DNA of 64,000 nucleotides from Escherichia coli (lineage in GTDB: Bacteria; Pseudomonadota; Gammaproteobacteria; Enterobacterales; Enterobacteriaceae). A program made the position numbers and the translations under genes. The DNA lies in assembly GCF_050320075.1 (NCBI RefSeq), contig NZ_CP190018.1; one strand, given 5' to 3'. This document shows positions 19,184 through 35,661 of the stretch, piece by piece. The notes beneath the pieces were generated by a model that was given only the letters and a program-made list of their open reading frames with translations, had not been told where the DNA came from and searched no databases. The first letter of the stretch is position 1; each line of letters starts with the position of its first letter.

Positions 19184-22100
19184 ATGGGTAAAGGCAGCAG
19201 TAAGGGGCATACCCCGCGCGAAGCGAAGGACAACCTGAAGTCCACGCAGCTGCTGAGTGTGATCGATGCCATCAGCGAAGGGCCGGTTGAAGGTCCGGTG
19301 GATGGATTAAAAAGCGTGCTGCTGAACAGTACGCCGGTGCTGGACAGTGAGGGGAATACCAATATATCCGGCGTCACGGTGGTGTTCCGGGCCGGTGAGC
19401 AGGAGCAGACTCCGCCGGAGGGATTTGAATCCTCCGGTTCCGAGACGGTGCTGGGTACGGAAGTGAAATATGACACGCCGATCACCCGCACCATCACGTC
19501 GGCAAACATCGACCGTCTGCGCTTTACCTTCGGTGTGCAGGCACTGGTGGAAACCACCTCAAAGGGGGACAGGAATCCATCGGAAGTCCGCCTGCTGGTT
19601 CAGATACAACGTAACGGTGGCTGGGTGACGGAAAAAGACATCACCATTAAGGGTAAAACCACCTCGCAGTATCTGGCCTCAGTGGTGGTGGATAACCTGC
19701 CGCCGCGCCCGTTTAATATCCGGATGCGCAGGATGACGCCGGACAGCACCACAGACCAGCTGCAGAACAAAACGCTCTGGTCGTCATACACCGAAATCAT
19801 CGATGTGAAACAGTGCTACCCGAACACGGCACTGGTCGGCGTGCAGGTGGACTCGGAGCAGTTCGGCAGCCAGCAGGTGAGCCGTAATTATCATCTGCGC
19901 GGGCGTATTCTGCAGGTGCCGTCGAACTATAACCCGCAGACGCGGCAATACAGCGGTATCTGGGACGGGACGTTTAAACCGGCATACAGCAACAACATGG
20001 CCTGGTGTCTGTGGGATATGCTGACCCATCCGCGCTACGGCATGGGGAAGCGTCTCGGTGCGGCGGATGTGGACAAATGGGCGCTGTATGTCATCGGCCA
20101 GAATTGCGACCAGTCGGTGCCGGATGGCTTTGGTGGCACGGAGCCGCGCATCACCTGTAATGCCTGGCTGACCACGCAGCGCAAGGCGTGGGATGTGCTC
20201 AGTGATTTCTGCTCGGCGATGCGCTGTATGCCGGTATGGAACGGGCAGACGCTGACGTTCGTGCAGGACCGGCCATCGGATAAGGTGTGGACCTATAACC
20301 GCAGTAATGTGGTGATGCCGGATGATGGCGCGCCGTTCCGCTACAGCTTCAGCGCCCTGAAGGACCGTCATAATGCCGTTGAGGTGAACTGGATTGACCC
20401 GAATAACGGCTGGGAGACGGCGACAGAGCTTGTGGAGGACACGCAGGCCATTGCCCGTTACGGTCGTAACGTTACGAAGATGGATGCCTTTGGCTGTACC
20501 AGCCGGGGGCAGGCACACCGCGCCGGGCTGTGGCTGATTAAAACAGAACTGCTGGAAACGCAGACCGTGGATTTCAGCGTCGGCGCAGAAGGGCTTCGCC
20601 ATGTACCGGGCGATGTTATTGAAATCTGTGATGATGACTATGCCGGTATCAGCACCGGTGGTCGTGTGCTGGCGGTGAACAGCCAGACCCGGACGCTGAC
20701 GCTCGACCGTGAAATCACGCTGCCATCCTCCGGTACCACGCTGATAAGCCTGGTTGACGGAAGTGGCAATCCGGTCAGCGTGGAGGTTCAGTCCGTCACC
20801 GACGGCGTGAAGGTAAAAGTGAGCCGTGTTCCTGACGGTGTTGCTGAATACAGCGTATGGGGGCTGAAGCTGCCGACGCTGCGCCAGCGACTGTTCCGCT
20901 GCGTGAGTATCCGTGAGAACGACGACGGCACGTATGCCATCACCGCCGTGCAGCATGTGCCGGAAAAAGAGGCCATCGTGGATAACGGGGCGCACTTTGA
21001 CGGCGAACAGAGTGGCACGGTGAATGGTGTCACGCCGCCAGCGGTGCAGCACCTGACCGCAGAAGTCACTGCAGACAGCGGGGAATATCAGGTGCTGGCG
21101 CGCTGGGATACGCCGAAGGTGGTGAAGGGTGTGAGCTTTATGCTTCGCCTGACCGTGGCAGCGGATGACGGCAGTGAGCGGCTGGTCAGCACGGCCCGGA
21201 CGACGGAAACCACATACCGCTTCAGGCAGCTGGCGCTGGGAAGCTACAGGCTGACAGTCCGGGCGGCAAATGCCTGGGGGCAGCAGGGCGATCCTGCATC
21301 GGTATCGTTCCGGATTGCCGCACCGGCAGCGCCGTCGCGGATTGAGCTGACGCCGGGCTATTTTCAGATAACCGCCACGCCCCATCTTGCCGTTTATGAT
21401 CCGACGGTACAGTTTGAGTTCTGGTTCTCGGAAAAGCGGATTGCGGATATCAGGCAGGTTGAAACTACAGCCCGCTATCTTGGCACGGCGCTGTACTGGA
21501 TAGCTGCCAGTATCAATATCAAACCGGGCCATGATTATTATTTTTACATCCGCAGTGTGAACACCGTTGGCAAATCGGCATTTGTGGAGGCTGTTGGCCA
21601 GCCGAGTGATGATGCATCCGGCTATCTGGATTTTTTCAAAGGCGAGATAGGGAAAAGCCATCTGGCTCAGGAGCTGTGGACGCAGATTGATAACGGTCAG
21701 CTTGCGCCTGACCTGGCTGAAATCAGGACGTCCATTACGGATGTCAGCAATGAAATCACGCAGACCGTCAATAAGAAACTGGAAGACCAGAGTGCGGCAA
21801 TTCAGCAGATACAGAAGGTTCAGGTTGATACAAATAATAACCTGAACAGCATGTGGGCTGTGAAGCTGCAGCAGATGCAGGACGGACGCCTTTATATCGC
21901 GGGTATTGGTGCCGGTATTGAGAACACCCCTGACGGCATGCAGAGTCAGGTGCTGCTGGCGGCGGACAGGATTGCGATGGTTAATCCTGCGAATGGCAAC
22001 ACAAAGCCGATGTTTGTTGGTCAGGGCGATCAGATATTCATGAACGAAGTGTTCCTGAAATATCTGACGGCTCCCACCATTACCAGCGGCGGTAATCCTC

Positions 22101-22663
22101 CGGCATTTTCCCTGACACCGGACGGGCGGCTGACGGCGAAAAATGCCGATATCAGCGGTAACGTGAATGCGAACTCCGGGACGCTCAACAACGTCACGAT
22201 TAACGAGAACTGCCGGGTTCTGGGAAAACTGTCCGCGAACCAGATTGAAGGCGATCTCGTTAAAACAGTGGGTAAAGCTTTCCCCCGGGACTCCCGTGCA
22301 CCGGAACGGTGGCCATCAGGGACCATTACCGTCAGGATTTATGACGATCAGCCGTTTGACCGACAGATTGTTATTCCGGCGGTGGCATTCAGCGGCGCTA
22401 AGCATGAGAGAGAGCATACTGATATTTACTCCTCATGCCGTCTGATAGTGCGGAAAAACGGTGCTGAAATTTATAACCGTACCGCGCTGGATAATACGCT
22501 GATTTACAGTGGCGTTATTGATATGCCTGCCGGTCACGGTCACATGACGCTGGAGTTTTCGGTGTCAGCATGGCTGGTAAATAACTGGTATCCCACAGCA
22601 AGTATCAGCGATTTGCTGGTTGTGGTGATGAAGAAAGCCACCGCAGGCATCAGTATCAGCTGA
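19184..22663 (+). CDS. J: central tail fibre / host specificity protein J
   Basis: 1159 aa, lambda gpJ-like order and N-terminal/central sequence. Confidence 0.9.
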
Positions 22664-23388: not shown

Positions 23389-25794
23389 GTGGATATGGCA
23401 GCAGTAAAAATCTCAGGTGTGCTGAAAGATGGTGCGGGAAAACCAATACAGAACTGCACTATTCAACTGAAGGCAAAGCGTAACAGCACCACGGTACTGG
23501 TGAACACGGTGGCCTCTGAAAATCCGGATGAAGCCGGGCGTTACAGCATGGATGTTGAGTATGGCCAGTACAGCGTCACCCTGCTGGTTGAAGGTTTTCC
23601 GCCTTCGCATGCCGGGAGCATTACCGTCTATGAAGGTTCCAGACCAGGTACGCTGAATGATTTTCTCGGTGCCATGACGGAAGAGGATGTCATGCCGGAG
23701 GCATTGCGCCGTTTTGAGGAAATGGTGGAAGAAGCGGCACGCAACGCCGAAGCCGCCTCTCAGAGCGCAGCGGCGGCAAAGAAATCCGAAACGGCTGCGG
23801 CATCATCGAAGAACGCGGCGAAAACCTCAGAAACGAATGCAGCTAATAGTGCACAGGCGGCAGCGACCTCAAAGACTGCATCGGCAAACTCCGCGACAGC
23901 AGCCAAAAAATCAGAAACCAACGCGAAAAATAGCGAGACAGCCGCAAAGACGAGCGAAACCAACGCAAAGTCCAGCCAGACGGCAGCGAAAACCAGCGAA
24001 ACGAATGCCAAAGCCAGTGAAACTGCGGCAAAAAACAGCCAGGTTGCAGCAGCCCAAAGCGAGAGCGCGGCAGCCGGTTCTGCGACTTCAGCAGCTGGAT
24101 CAGCAACTGCTGCGGCTAACAGCCAGAAAGCTGCGAAGACGAGTGAAACTAACGCAAAGTCCAGCCAGACGGCAGCGAAGACCAGCGAAACGAATGCCAA
24201 AGCCAGCGAAACTGCGGCGAAAAACAGCCAGGTTGCAGCAGCCCAAAGCGAGAGCGCGGCAGCTGGTTCTGCAAGCGCGGCGGCTGCTTCTGCCACTGCA
24301 TCAGCCAACAGTCAAAAAGCGGCAAAAACCAGTGAAACCAATGCAAAGACAAGCGAGACTGCAGCGGCGAACTCGGCGAAAGCATCGGCAGCAAGCCAGA
24401 CAGCAGCTAAAGCAAGTGAAGACGCAGCCAGAGAGTATGCAAGTCAGGCAGCAGAGCCGTATAAATATGTCTTACAGCCACTGCCTGATGTGTGGATACC
24501 GTTTAACGATTCACTGGATATGATTACGGGCTTTTCGCCGTCATATAAAAAAATTGTTATTGGTGATGATGAAATAACGATGCCTGGCGACAAGGTTGTT
24601 AAGTTTAAACGCGCATCAACTGCCACATATATCAATAAATCAGGCGTATTTAGTGTTGCTAAAATTGATGAGCCACGATTTGAAAAAGAAGGTTTATTGA
24701 TTGAAGGACAGCGCACTAACTATTTTGTTAAATCCAATACTCCCGCTGAATGGACGAGTACCAGCAATATCGATAAAACTAATAATGGTGTTGATGAATT
24801 TGGTTTTTCATATGCCAAAATGCGAACAAAAGATAATATGACAGGACAATCATCTGCACTTAGTCTGCATACATGCAGTGCATCCCGGGGGATTGATGTT
24901 AGTGGCGATAATAAGTATTGCACTGTTTCATGCAGGGTTAAAGCTCCTGATGGTCTTCGTTGTCGTTTGCGTTTTGAAAAATACGATGGGTCGGTTTATA
25001 CATTTTTAGGAGATGCTTATTTAACTTTCGGAACTCTGATAATAGAAAAAACTGGCGGAGCAGCCAATAGAATAGCAGCTACTGCAACTAAAGATCCGGT
25101 TACAGGGTGGATTTTCTATGAGGCAACTATAGAAGCTGTTGAAGGTGAAGCCTTAATTGGCGCAATGATTCAGTATGCGCCGAAAAAAGGTGGTATAACT
25201 GAAGCGGGAGATTATATTTACCTTGCAACACCACAATTTGAAAACGGCGGATGTGCTTCATCTTTTGTTATTACGACAACTGCACCCGCAACCCGCTCCA
25301 GTGATATGGTGACGATCCCAACTGAAAATAATATCTATAATAGACCGCTTACGTGTCTTGTCGAGGTCAATAGAAATTGGGGCGATATTCCTCCTAATGT
25401 AGCACCGCGTATTTTTGATTTTTCTGGTGTGCCACCTATTGAGTCAATTACATACGCTTTTAACACAACTGAGAAATATTACGGTCAGCTTTATATACAA
25501 ACTTATAAAGCGTTGACAAGTACTTACGTTTCTAGTGTGTTTGCTGGTCGAACTGATGTTCGAAAATTCATTGGTGGTTTTAATATTTATTCTGATGGTA
25601 CTAAACGAGTAGTTTCTAACGGTGAGGCTACTAAAACTATGAAAACGGAGTGGACGGGCGTAAAAACACGGACCTTTATTCGAATTGGAGGTCAAGCCAC
25701 ATCGGGAACTCGTCATCTATTCGGCCATTTGAGAAATCTTCGTCTCTGGCATAAAGAATTAACTGATGCGCAAATGGGGGAGAGTATTAAATGA
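23389..25794 (+). CDS. stf: side tail fibre protein (Stf-like), chimeric: lambda-like N-terminus, repeat shaft, AT-rich divergent C-terminal domain
   Basis: 801 aa; N-terminal ~100 aa match lambda Stf as recalled (MAVKISGVLKDG...); internal Ala/Ser/Thr/Lys repeats; composition shifts to AT-rich from about nt 24480. Confidence 0.85.
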   Translation: MDMAAVKISGVLKDGAGKPIQNCTIQLKAKRNSTTVLVNTVASENPDEAGRYSMDVEYGQYSVTLLVEGFPPSHAGSITVYEGSRPGTLNDFLGAMTEEDVMPEALRRFEEMVEEAARNAEAASQSAAAAKKSETAAASSKNAAKTSETNAANSAQAAATSKTASANSATAAKKSETNAKNSETAAKTSETNAKSSQTAAKTSETNAKASETAAKNSQVAAAQSESAAAGSATSAAGSATAAANSQKAAKTSETNAKSSQTAAKTSETNAKASETAAKNSQVAAAQSESAAAGSASAAAASATASANSQKAAKTSETNAKTSETAAANSAKASAASQTAAKASEDAAREYASQAAEPYKYVLQPLPDVWIPFNDSLDMITGFSPSYKKIVIGDDEITMPGDKVVKFKRASTATYINKSGVFSVAKIDEPRFEKEGLLIEGQRTNYFVKSNTPAEWTSTSNIDKTNNGVDEFGFSYAKMRTKDNMTGQSSALSLHTCSASRGIDVSGDNKYCTVSCRVKAPDGLRCRLRFEKYDGSVYTFLGDAYLTFGTLIIEKTGGAANRIAATATKDPVTGWIFYEATIEAVEGEALIGAMIQYAPKKGGITEAGDYIYLATPQFENGGCASSFVITTTAPATRSSDMVTIPTENNIYNRPLTCLVEVNRNWGDIPPNVAPRIFDFSGVPPIESITYAFNTTEKYYGQLYIQTYKALTSTYVSSVFAGRTDVRKFIGGFNIYSDGTKRVVSNGEATKTMKTEWTGVKTRTFIRIGGQATSGTRHLFGHLRNLRLWHKELTDAQMGESIK
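23945..24322 (+). repeat. two tandem ~189-bp (63-codon) near-identical repeats inside the stf shaft
   Basis: aacgcaaagtccagccagacggcagcgaa... recurs at 23962 and 24151; embedded in a longer array of shorter AAKTSETNAK-type units. Confidence 0.75.
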
Positions 25795-27158: not shown

Positions 27159-27458
27159 ATGAAAATGGATATAACACCTTTCCTTCATGCGCTTTGTGCT
27201 GTGGCTGCGCAGCTACTGATTGGTCTTTTTACCGGGAACTGGGCTTACGGGGCGATAGCCGGTTGTACGTTCTTCATTGCGCGTGAACACACCCAGGCAG
27301 AATATCGCTGGATCGAAATGTTCGGGCATGGCAAGCGAATGAATATGCCGTGGTGGGGCGGTTTTGATCCACGCGCGTGGGATGTGGCAAGCCTGATGGA
27401 TTTTGCTGTGCCGGTGGTGGCGTGTCTGCTGGTCTGGCTGTTGGTTAATCGTGGGTGA
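27159..27458 (+). CDS. small hydrophobic membrane protein (2-3 predicted TM helices), function unknown
   Basis: Track ORF begins with TTG at 27150; ATG at 27159/27165 more plausible; hydrophobic stretches [16 protein letters not shown] and [15 protein letters not shown]. Confidence 0.5.
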
Positions 27459-27608
27459 AAAAAGGTGGGCTGTATATGCAACGGAGGAAGAAACCACGTT
27501 GCTGGAAGCCTGGAAGAAGTATCGGGTGTTGCTGAACCGTGTTAATACAACAACTGCACCGGATATTGAATGGCCAACAGTACCCATTATCGAATAGTGC
27601 ATTACGAA

Positions 27609-27650
27609 CTGCAGGATATTATATGGGATAATATTCTGCAGTTTATTGGG
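27609..27650 (+). terminator. 14-bp-stem hairpin plus T-rich tail ending the fibre-operon transcript
   Basis: ctgcaggatattat-atggg-ataatattctgcag then tttattgg. Confidence 0.4.
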
Positions 27651-27670: not shown

Positions 27671-29002
27671 TTATTTTGAGTGAATTATCACCTTGTTTTT
27701 TCCGGTTCTTTTGGCTTGATATAACGCTTTGTCGGCATTGACTAACATTTCAGATGGACTGAGATTATTCTCTTTTGAAGCAAAGCAACCAATACTGACA
27801 GTTATTTTCTCAGGTCCATGCGATAATAATTTTTCCGAGCATTGCTCTTCAATGTTTTTTCTGATTCGCTCTGCAATTGATAGCAAGAGTTTTTGAGTAT
27901 TACCTTTAATGATAATACCGAACTCCTCACCGCCTAAGCGCCCTAATATATCCTCTTTCCTGATGGATTTTTTTATTATTCTGGTAACCATTACTATGAC
28001 TTGATCACCCATATGATGCCCCCATTTGTCATTGATGCTTTTGAAACTGTCAATATCTAACATTATTACTGAGAAATCATGGTGTTTTGATATATTCTTC
28101 AATGAGTCAATAAAGTATCTTCTATTGTATGTATTCGTTAGTGGATCATGAATTGCCATATGATTAGCATGATTTAATTTCCTGAAAACATAATACATGA
28201 GTGTTGAAATGATATAAATCATTGATATCAATTCAAGAAATTTTGTCATGTACCATGCAGGATGGGATTTATCAATAAAATACAATAAAATTAGATTATT
28301 GCATACTGACACTATACTAATAAGTATTATACACAACCATATTTTTGAGTAATTACGTATGCTGATGCATGAGCTGATAAGTAATACAAGCCAAAATACT
28401 GATATTATTTTGGTGTACACGATATTCCACGTCGACAAATGACGATTCAGCGAGTATTGTATAATATTAAGACTATATTTTATATGGTCACTGCTTAGAT
28501 TTTTTGCTACAAACGGAGTAATAAAAAGAATTAATATTGACAAAACAACAATTATTATGTTTCTTTTATCTTCTAAAATACTTTTATTTTTAACATTGGT
28601 GGAATAAACAGCCAGAAAGATTATAGATATAAAGCTGAACTGACGGAATAGATAATATATTGCGATATCATTTGATTTCTGATAGATTGTAGATAAATCG
28701 TTACCTAACGGAGATAAAGAAATAATAGCCACTTCTAATAAATAATACGTGTTGCTCAAAAACGCGAATGAAAGAATTAAGAGATAACTTTGTCTCTGAT
28801 TAGAAACATAGTAAAGCAATAGAAAAATAAAAATCATCAGGTTTATGAAAAAAAGCCCAATAATGAAAACACTATAACTTATTTGTGTTGTTTGTGTTAT
28901 GTATATTCCATTATTTTCATGCAGTAACAAAAATATAATAGAGATGCATGAAAATAAAAAGATGAAGATTTTTATTTTTATAGGTACCTGGTTGATAATC
29001 AT
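27671..29002 (-). CDS. membrane-anchored GGDEF-domain diguanylate cyclase (N-terminal polytopic membrane domain of unrecognised type)
   Basis: 443 aa; SD AGGTG 6 nt upstream; C-terminal GGDEF motifs incl. RKEDILGRLGGEEF (I-site RxxD + GGEEF); about 8 hydrophobic helices N-terminal; extremely AT-rich. Confidence 0.85.
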   Translation of the reverse strand: MIINQVPIKIKIFIFLFSCISIIFLLLHENNGIYITQTTQISYSVFIIGLFFINLMIFIFLLLYYVSNQRQSYLLILSFAFLSNTYYLLEVAIISLSPLGNDLSTIYQKSNDIAIYYLFRQFSFISIIFLAVYSTNVKNKSILEDKRNIIIVVLSILILFITPFVAKNLSSDHIKYSLNIIQYSLNRHLSTWNIVYTKIISVFWLVLLISSCISIRNYSKIWLCIILISIVSVCNNLILLYFIDKSHPAWYMTKFLELISMIYIISTLMYYVFRKLNHANHMAIHDPLTNTYNRRYFIDSLKNISKHHDFSVIMLDIDSFKSINDKWGHHMGDQVIVMVTRIIKKSIRKEDILGRLGGEEFGIIIKGNTQKLLLSIAERIRKNIEEQCSEKLLSHGPEKITVSIGCFASKENNLSPSEMLVNADKALYQAKRTGKNKVIIHSK

Positions 29003-29594
29003 GTACGCACCTGAGAATGATATATATATAATATGTATCGCTACAAATAACGATAATTTCTTACTGGTGATAGTATACTATTATTCTGGTTAATCGCTGT
29101 CAAATTGATGATTTTGGTTAGTATTGCAATAGCGAAGGGTTTGATCCGGTAAGACTGGCTAGGCAAGGCTATACCAAAAAATCAGTGTAGGTTCAGAAAA
29201 CGATGCACCATACAATCATCAATAATTTCAAATTGTCCATTGTGCATAAATCATAAAGAAAACCGCAGCACGTCGTATGCAAGAACGTGCTGCGGTTGGC
29301 TGGTGAGCTTTCGATAGTGCGAGTATTGAATGATTTCCAGACGTTACCGATTTTATATAACTGCAGTGGAATTATTCAACACACAGGCAAAACGGAATAA
29401 GCTGAGAAAAAAGCGTGCTTTCCCAATCTGGGGCAAATCACGTCTGAATGACACCTGAAAACAGGTGGTAGCCTCAAGAAGGCTTGGAATATTCTTCTTT
29501 AATGTTATGTAATTCATTGATTTTTCTTGTACGATTTTAAGACATTTATTCCAAGAAAAATTTTTAACTCTTTGATTTTTCGACTCTGTATCAT

Positions 29595-29656
29595 CGGTCT
29601 CGAAAACCGGAGTAGGGGCAACTCTACCGGGGGTTCAAATCCCCCTCTCTCCGCCA
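29595..29656 (+). other. 3' 61 nt of tRNA-Ser (serU-type, anticodon CGA region to CCA): prophage attR core copy, not a complete tRNA
   Basis: ggtctcgaaaaccggagtaggggcaactctaccgggggttcaaatccccctctctccgcca matches the 3' two-thirds of serU as recalled; the 5' acceptor/D-arm is absent upstream. Confidence 0.85.
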
Positions 29657-30323
29657 CCTTATCAATGACTTATCTCCCGACTTCCCGCCTTGCTTTTCCT
29701 AAACAGAACAATCGTAGAATATTCTTGAAGGGTTAGATCGTCACTGTTTTCTGTTCGATACTGTGACATTCAGCACTTGATTCGCTATGGATCTGACAGG
29801 AAGGTTTCGAGCGAAAATCTGCAGTTATTCAGTCGTTTTCTTATCGGTCACCATTATTCTTTTAGACATTGATCCTACGAAGCTGCCGCAAAGTTGGTGG
29901 TGGGAACTGAAGTTGCGTAGAGAAGGAGTCAATAATTGAGCCAAAAAAGGAACGCGGCCGTCAGATTAAAGCCGCGGGACAAAGTCCATAATTTCCAAGA
30001 GTTGTTGAATTTCCCAACTTTTTTGAAAGCCTTTGTATCATACTAACAAGTAAAAAAGGTTTAAATACCAAAATTAACCTATATTTCTGGTTAGCTTTAC
30101 CATGACAGATGACTTGCTCCTGGAGACATTGGCGCAGCCAGTCTGTATTGGTGAGTTGTGTATTTATTGTTCGCCGTTTTCTCAGTTTTTTCTACAGACA
30201 TAATAAAAAAGACACGTCTCAAGCATGAGCGTGTCTGAGTTTGTCTTATTTATTTGTCTTGGTAAATTATTGTCGTTACTACTAGGCACTGTTCTGTTAA
30301 ATAATTGAATCAGCGAAAAAAAA

Positions 30324-35555: not shown

Positions 35556-35586
35556 CATAGGGCTTCAGTACGCCATAAATTAACCG

Positions 35587-35626
35587 TGAAAAACGCAGCC
35601 ACGTCGTGAGTATTAACGTGGCTGCG
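35587..35626 (-). terminator. hairpin terminator between convergent hprS and hchA
   Basis: cgcagccacg-loop-cgtggctgcg with T-run on the minus strand. Confidence 0.5.
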
Positions 35627-35661
35627 ATTGATTATGCGCTTACATTACAATGTAACAGGGA

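Follow-up and report, generated by a model that had tools for sequence, protein, structure and literature searches.

The window analysed here is a 64-kb stretch of the Escherichia coli chromosome. From position 1 to ~29590 it carries the late half of a lambda-like prophage, running from terminase through the tail and tail-fibre genes, and to the right of the prophage lie the host genes zinT, msrQP, hiuH, hprRS, hchA, an ompC-like porin gene, dcm/vsr, DsrA, RseX, fli genes and fliE-yedL-yedK (Table 1). No complete tRNA was found in the window with ARAGORN; alignment revealed a piece of the tRNA-Ser gene serU at the right edge of the prophage. Similarity to K-12 serU ends at the left edge of this 62-nt fragment, and the phage SerU-LTIIb match at the fragment is annotated as tRNA-Ser. 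The fragment is attR, which places the first of the two hairpins considered here (copy 1) ~300 bp inside the prophage.

Table 1. Features of the window that bear on the two hairpins.
Feature	Position	Strand	Basis or remark
tfa remnant (tail-fibre assembly gene), end of the late operon	27403-27597	+	ORF; RefSeq 'tail fiber assembly protein, partial'
Diverged hairpin directly following the tfa remnant, 3' of the cyclase gene	27609-27641		Marginal family member
Cargo gene encoding a 443-aa diguanylate cyclase with a sensor domain; follows copy 1 in the minus-strand direction	27671-29002	-	ORF; RefSeq annotation
Promoter-like site TTGACA-17-TAGTAT upstream of the cyclase gene	29075-29103	-	Consensus match only; 3 sites in the region vs 3.1 expected
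U-rich tract 3' of the hairpin as read on the minus strand (UUUUCUUUAUGAUUU)	29248-29262	-	Sequence
Hairpin copy 1, 11-bp stem CCGCAGCACGT/ACGTGCUGCGG, 11-nt loop	29263-29295	-	Sequence; model match; fold; family stem covariation
Conserved 60-nt non-coding block	29296-29355	-	Phage matches; dinI right flank; no consistently open reading frame
Phage-side arm between module and attR	29356-29594		29400-29600 is 97-99% identical to phages ev099, mEp332 and PhiR70_1
tRNA-Ser serU, last 62 nt; attR core and prophage right edge	29595-29656	+	Identical to the 3' part of K-12 serU
hchA terminator hairpin (listed in the initial annotation)	35594-35626	-	Not a demonstrable family member; itself a good terminator
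yedL cassette, ~600 bp (35 nt, hairpin, yedL, 51 nt upstream)	61183-61785		Empty site in strain B-1109
Hairpin copy 2, 5 nt past the stop codon of yedL	61217-61249	-	Model match; sequence; fold
yedL (GNAT N-acetyltransferase)	61255-61734	-	ORF; annotation

Read on the minus strand from right to left, the copy-1 locus consists of the serU fragment, a ~240-bp phage arm, the conserved block and the hairpin with its UUUUCUUU tail, followed further left by the promoter-like site, the cyclase gene, the diverged hairpin and the tfa remnant. Copy 1 and the block make up a non-coding module of ~103 bp (29253-29355) with the hairpin at its left end, and the block terminates in ...CCGATTTTA. RefSeq lays a fragment of a 'capsid protein' pseudogene over 29284-29355; stop codons interrupt that frame in 32 of 61 variants of the block, and no frame with a start codon stays open across all of them. 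We therefore rejected the block as a protein-coding fragment, since the reading frame is not kept across homologues, and the pseudogene is probably an annotation artefact. At GGCTGG[NN]AAC, the two adjacent positions in brackets (29304-29305) take at least seven dinucleotides across phages (TG, CG, TT, CT, AG, CA and TA), with the rest of the block near-invariant around them. The block also holds an octamer, GCTGGNNA, that lies one base off Chi (GCTGGTGG).

On either side of the module the prophage end has its own peculiarities. In another strain, Ec-042-T5-ESBL, the same cyclase gene and the module upstream of it lie beside a tail-fibre remnant at the lambda attachment site (ybhB-bioA), and in strain YZLc1-3 the cyclase gene is frameshifted; the cyclase gene and the module look like a cargo unit moving between phages. 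To the right, the interval between the serU fragment and zinT (29657-30323), which in K-12 contains yodB, spans only ~670 bp and has neither an ORF of at least 100 aa nor an annotated gene, and yodB appears to be missing from this strain. The nearest minus-strand gene upstream of copy 1 is zinT, at a distance of 1 kb. A stem-loop with a T-run on the minus strand (30205-30240, judged by eye), ~90 nt past the end of zinT, probably serves as the terminator of this gene, and transcripts from zinT are therefore unlikely to run on into copy 1.

Copy 2 is the hairpin alone, with the block and the dinI-like gene that commonly follows it (see below) replaced by yedL. The yedL cassette sits between an integrase remnant by fliE and yedK, and the empty site in strain B-1109 reads ...ggagcgtcta / ctttgtctaatag... 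across the junction. A query from the yedL end matched 2691 of 5426 genomes, many of them only at its left 67 nt, i.e. without yedL and the hairpin; the ~600-bp insertion is missing from about half of E. coli. As a phage cargo the cassette had no match among 50,697 phage records. The fliE-yedK interval (59900-61125 and 61183-61785) is an insertion hot spot in which even 'empty' strains carry the integrase remnant, and a leucine-rich-repeat effector-like pseudogene (DUF5503; EspR3/EspR4 in other strains) has been inserted separately to the left of the yedL cassette.

Likeness and distribution of the hairpins

Copies 1 and 2 agree at 33 of 37 positions, with the core GCAGCACGTCG(T/A)ATGCAAGAA(C/T)GTGCTGCG(GT/TC)TGGCT, and a repeat finder widens the match to 49 nt at 84% (29253-29301 vs 61207-61255). 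The initial annotation had reported about this number of shared positions, loop included, and both its coordinates and its count were verified. It had also judged the likeness to exceed that of two independent terminators, which is what the searches bear out. In the 64 kb, the only two sites matched by a degenerate 30-mer are the two hairpins, and 100 shuffles contained no match. A covariance model trained on 35 copies from other phages, to which the window contributed no sequence, scores 79.1 bits on copy 1 (29252-29303, E=4.6e-19) and 48.0 bits on copy 2 (61206-61257, E=9.1e-11), and copy 2 has the family loop with one change and CTGGCT after the stem. These comparisons indicate that both hairpins are related by descent and originate from a stem-loop at the tail-fibre/attachment-site end of lambda-like prophages. 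The resemblance is thus real but ordinary, being explained by shared prophage ancestry.

The third hairpin named in the initial annotation, that of hchA, had been taken for a weaker relative. Against the same model the hchA hairpin (35582-35635) scores only 12.9 bits (E=0.21), level with chance hairpins, so that its membership of the family is not supported; its fold of -21.5 kcal/mol is followed by a UUUUU tail. The diverged hairpin just after the tfa remnant is a marginal case: its model match (27598-27649) reaches 15.3 bits (E=0.051), and it folds at -15.0 kcal/mol (z=-5.7). It is placed as is the tfa-proximal copy of lambda (22562-22614; 35.1 bits, E=1.9e-7), which has two family members, one on either side of ea47. 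The second of these (24151-24203) is the model match that opens the phage match at 24162-24258 described below. The window parallels lambda in that its marginal second member lies beyond the cargo (cyclase) gene. Since ea47 in lambda is flanked by two members and the cyclase gene is flanked likewise, with one of the two marginal, the arrangement hints at recombination at the hairpin as the way in which cargo genes are acquired.

The genome-wide copy count proposed in the initial annotation was run, and a 90-nt query around copy 1 found matches in 5415 of 5426 complete E. coli genomes, at a median of 4 places; at a coverage of at least 80% the module is present in 5150 of the 5426. The number of places climbs with prophage load, from 2-5 in K-12 or B-like strains to 10-11 in O157 strains. 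A 113-nt query (29246-29358) matched 221 phage records, among them HK97, lambda, phi80, HK633, mEp460, Stx1/Stx2 phages and some Salmonella phages, with 95% identity to HK97 at 20936-21039 and 89% to lambda at 24162-24258, and the ykgJ-ecpE region of K-12 matched as well. The distribution described here thus covers E. coli, Shigella-type Stx phages and a few Salmonella phages. The suggestion that copy 1 belongs to a short repeated element is borne out by these records, in which the ~103-bp module recurs with shared flanks. We found no description of the module as such.

Retrieval by a pattern in the block yielded 125 copies comprising 68 distinct sequences. On the left, similarity halts at the base of the stem, where at least eight unrelated flanks adjoin; on the right it halts within 2 nt of CCGATTTTA(C), and at least six classes of flank are found. 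The variants of the hairpin go with the left flank, while the block is near-invariant. The left flank ends either in plus-strand genes (tfa, a pin-type invertase or a small membrane protein) that stop 2-30 nt before the stem or in a minus-strand cargo gene. The orientation of the module is constant, and it is always flanked by the tail-fibre or cargo genes towards one end and by attP/int towards the other, as seen in HK97 (tfa, module, annotated sib, attP core, int) and in the window itself (tfa remnant, cyclase gene, module, serU fragment); the hairpin is likewise placed in ES18 (tail-fibre gene, hairpin, attP, int) and in Gifsy-1 (gogB, hairpin, attR). The module is a marker for the attR-proximal end of lambda-like prophages, fossil ones included, and the position at island boundaries that the initial annotation had pointed out follows from this site.

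In 83 of the 125 copies, the right flank is a minus-strand dinI-like gene encoding an 82-aa protein with an upstream LexA box (TACTGTGTTTGTATACAGTA), the stop codon of which falls ~9 nt past the block. Sampling 81 loci through the DinI protein alone recovered the module downstream in 73 of them; a scan of genome contigs with the DinI protein gave only 2 loci. Because the dinI-like gene ends just beyond the block, the module on the minus strand reads as a dinI 3'UTR with a terminal stem-loop. The chromosomal dinI of E. coli was rejected as a relative, its 3' end being short and unrelated. The remaining right flanks comprise lambda-type sib (HK97), the lambda b region, the end of an IntS-type integrase gene and the serU-type arm of the window, a class (TATAACTGCAG) with 10 copies; these four unrelated dinI-less flanks all meet the block within 2 nt of the same point. 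No dinI adjoins copy 1 in the window, so this copy is an orphan ~300 bp from attR without a gene to terminate. The proposal that it is the relic of a lost gene fits these data, given that the gene found directly upstream on the minus strand in most sampled copies is absent here.

Stem conservation and terminator character

Folded as minus-strand RNA, copy 1 reaches -23.8 kcal/mol (z=-6.3), and its U-rich tract follows. Copy 2 folds at -14.7 kcal/mol on the minus strand (z=-2.4), where its stem has two A-C mismatches and its tail is weak (CCUUUAUUCAUC), and better on the plus strand (-23.6 kcal/mol). Both copies therefore form a stable GC-rich stem-loop on the minus strand, and a U-rich tract 3' of the stem is present in copy 1 and weak in copy 2 (CCUUUAUU). 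The initial description of both as minus-strand hairpins with T-runs thus stands for copy 1, whereas copy 2 makes a poor minus-strand terminator. Their positions differ as well: copy 2 follows the yedL stop codon directly and is presumably a weak end of the yedL transcript, copy 1 has no adjacent gene, and most phage copies come after dinI. A terminator scan found none at these sites; its loop limit of 8 nt is shorter than the loop of this hairpin.

In the family as a whole, at least 5 U within 8 nt after the stem occur on the dinI-sense (minus) strand in 76 of 171 copies (44%) and on the plus strand in none, and the largest class has a U-tract on neither strand, so that a plain terminator, as first proposed, is not the whole story. 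The stem, which is 11-14 bp long, is kept base-paired by compensatory change. All 11 stem pairs have changed on both sides, with 43 compensatory cells against 9.7 +/- 2.6 in shuffles; 90% of stem cells are paired, and the covariation signal collapses when partner columns are slid. Wobble pairs show no strand bias (27 G-U vs 31 A-C). The loop, CGTATGCAAGA, is more conserved than the stem, and no covarying structure was found inside the 60-nt block. Between modern phages and the relic in K-12, identity is ~97% over the block and ~75% over the adjacent dinI remnant.

Taken together, the module is a terminator-like or 3'-stabiliser-like element between convergent genes, in a position like that of lambda sib yet not sib, and its most likely role, judged from sequence and context, is that of a terminator or RNA-end stabiliser where opposing transcripts meet. 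We put at about 70% the probability of the explanation as a whole, in which both hairpins have a common origin in a stem-loop marking the right-hand end of lambda-like prophages, where convergent transcription meets. Rightward late transcription (of the tail-fibre gene, tfa or a pin-type invertase) would meet leftward transcription from dinI, cargo or int at the stem-loop. The full form presents the stem-loop and then the block on the plus strand and, on the minus strand, a dinI 3'UTR with its terminal hairpin. The stem-loop would stop or end-protect the mRNA of dinI (or yedL), and probably the late mRNA too, acting as an intrinsic terminator where a U-tract is present and as a barrier to 3' exonucleases elsewhere, and it may also shield the cargo promoter and the tail genes from leftward read-through. 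The serU-integrating prophage of the window has the module and lacks dinI, so that the hairpin of copy 1 lies upstream of the cargo gene for the cyclase; this copy has the full anatomy of an intrinsic terminator on the minus strand, on which it would be predicted to terminate transcription. Against this explanation stand the minority share of U-tracts, the lack of a wobble bias and the A-C mismatches of copy 2. Moreover, a plain terminator does not predict a loop more conserved than its stem, a block at ~97% beside a dinI remnant at ~75%, or the junction shared by four flanks.

Comparison with known elements

Several known systems share features with the module. Intrinsic terminators and 3' stabiliser stem-loops likewise have a GC-rich stem, here of 11 covarying base pairs, between convergent units, and the U-tract after copy 1 and 44% of the family conforms to them; the module differs in its 11-nt loop of conserved sequence, the lack of a U-tract in most members and the attached block. 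The lambda sib/tI retroregulator is a stem-loop across attP from int, which is read by leftward transcripts and parted from int on integration. However, it has no sequence similarity to the module, HK97 carries sib (21042-21091) beside the module rather than within it, the module's stem falls short of the length of a typical RNase III substrate, and dinI usually lies between the module and attP. We therefore rejected sib/tI as the identity of the module, for want of homology and with a stem of only 11-14 bp.

Mosaic-boundary sequences occur in lambda-like phages. The module resembles them, and also the phage 'morons' of lambda-like phages (Juhala et al. 2000, as cited in PMC4104026), in that single cargo genes (cyclase, ykgJ, ea47, gogB, yedL) adjoin the hairpin between the tail-fibre genes and att and in that homology limits fall exactly at the module edges. 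In contrast to morons, the hairpin is upstream of most such cargo genes and occupies a terminator position only for dinI and yedL.

Two small RNAs also share features with the module. DinR of Klebsiella pneumoniae is an Hfq-dependent sRNA derived from the dinI 3'UTR (PMC10907235); like the module, it is non-coding and is bounded by the stop codon of a dinI gene under LexA control and by a terminal hairpin, a position shared by the 83 dinI-flanked family copies and by neither window copy, both of which lack dinI. It comes from chromosomal dinI, whereas the module comes from prophage dinI-like genes, and the ftsZ pairing was not found for the module. The Shigella flexneri sRNA CssrB (RF02799) is ~180 nt long by Northern blot, with a 3' end set by terminator prediction (PMC3071730), and the 3' end of its model equals the module hairpin with the left flank AAAUC(G/A)UAAAG(A/G)AAA. 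However, the match reaches 44.1 bits against a gathering score of 76, lies on the plus strand of the window and lacks ~100 model positions, and we rejected CssrB as the identity of the module on this threshold. The Rfam comparison suggested in the initial annotation thus returned only this sub-threshold match on the opposite strand, covering the hairpin and ~13 nt of its left flank. At the gathering threshold the only Rfam families in the window are DsrA and RseX, both elsewhere, and no known sRNA was found at the module site.

Competing readings and the K-12 fossil

We also considered that the block and hairpin constitute a regulatory small RNA, or, put more broadly, a distinct and unnamed RNA element of lambda-like prophages, either an SOS-induced sRNA or a cis signal from the dinI 3'UTR, that was kept after dinI loss; we judge either form unlikely. 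Such an element would explain why the block is conserved above both of its neighbours, why its junctions with four unrelated right-hand modules fall on one and the same nucleotide, and why almost all E. coli retain a ~97% identical copy in the ykgJ-ecpE interval, and it accords with the location of the block in the 3'UTR of a LexA-box dinI-like gene, with the stem and U-tail that end copy 1 and, by analogy, with the cutting of DinR from a dinI 3' end. The remaining data point the other way. Complementarity to the ftsZ leader of E. coli is at the shuffle mean (-25.4 vs -24.6 +/- 4.0 kcal/mol), on which basis ftsZ targeting in the manner of DinR or DicF was rejected; covariation within the block is absent; and among near-identical dinI loci the block shows a diversity (0.050) not far from the value at third codon positions (0.071). 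Many copies lack the U-tail, and no Rfam family matches at the gathering threshold. The dinI-less classes have no consistent -35 element, and the single promoter match in the window, TTGAAT-18-TAAAAT, is within chance (one of 3 sites vs 3.1 expected) and has no counterpart with a comparable -35 in the other flank classes, as judged by eye; we rejected it as a promoter of a free-standing block. In O157, the highlighted Hfq-bound sRNAs map to the PR' site, and EcOnc31 of Sp5, the only candidate checked at a right end, was rejected as the module, being a different sequence.

A block without function of its own could also be a conserved 'linker', a substrate for homologous recombination at a mosaic boundary through which tail-fibre and cargo modules reassort with dinI, att and int modules. 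The joining of so many left and right flank classes through the same ~103 bp, hairpin variants that follow the left flank across a near-invariant block, and the two copies flanking ea47 in lambda, with the marginal second copy beyond the cyclase gene in the window, all favour it; it leaves the compensatory upkeep of the stem, the conserved loop and the ~97% persistence in a fixed chromosomal relic unaccounted for, and we consider it improbable. It is compatible with the convergent-transcription explanation rather than exclusive of it. Very improbable, in our estimation, is that the module is a phage attachment site, as the GenBank record of HK633 has it ('attP; similar to non-coding region between ykgJ and yagV', 20680-20760). 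The module does always lie ~25-360 bp from attP, but the homology between HK633 and chromosomal IntS-type prophages begins ~25 nt rightward of the module (query positions 329-333), the module of the window is intact at ~240 bp from the serU core, the lambda-type core of HK97 is ~190 bp off with sib in between, at least four different integrase/att types are found beside the module, and the ykgJ-ecpE region of K-12 looks like a fossil prophage end, not an empty attB. The HK633 label is probably misplaced. We give almost no credence to the notion that the hairpins are independent terminators that came to look alike through chance or convergence, or that they are copies of a miniature repeat able to move freely. 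GC-rich terminator stems can look alike (the hchA stem shares 14 nt with the HK97 variant), and the module does occur several times per genome with discrete ends; however, the E-value of copy 2 (9e-11) against a model from other phages, the common loop and post-stem CTGGCT and the lack of matches in shuffles speak against chance, and the constant position and orientation inside prophages speaks against a mobile repeat, of which neither terminal inverted repeats nor target duplications were seen at the junctions read.

In K-12, the module between ykgJ and ecpE is followed by a frameshifted dinI remnant, and the adjacent yagU-ykgJ interval holds the Rfam RNA IS009 (202 bits), which has been reported as the sRNA EcsR2 (PMC4350180). 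The IS009/EcsR2 sequence reads as the 3' end of a tfa gene. Given this tfa-like sequence together with ykgJ, the module and the dinI remnant, the yagU-ecpE region looks like the end of a lambda-like prophage that has become fixed in E. coli as a fossil, in the order tfa remnant, ykgJ, hairpin, block, dinI remnant.

Two database annotations are corrected by these results, the RefSeq 'capsid protein' pseudogene and the HK633 'attP', and a chromosomal gene, yedL, proves to end at a stem-loop of a phage family. On present evidence the element is an ordinary terminator or 3'UTR relic; were the block an SOS-linked RNA, it would be a widespread prophage-borne regulator to set beside the one known dinI-derived sRNA. 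The ~103-bp module is a usable marker of prophage ends, for example in the yagU-ecpE region of K-12 and at the fliE-yedK hot spot.
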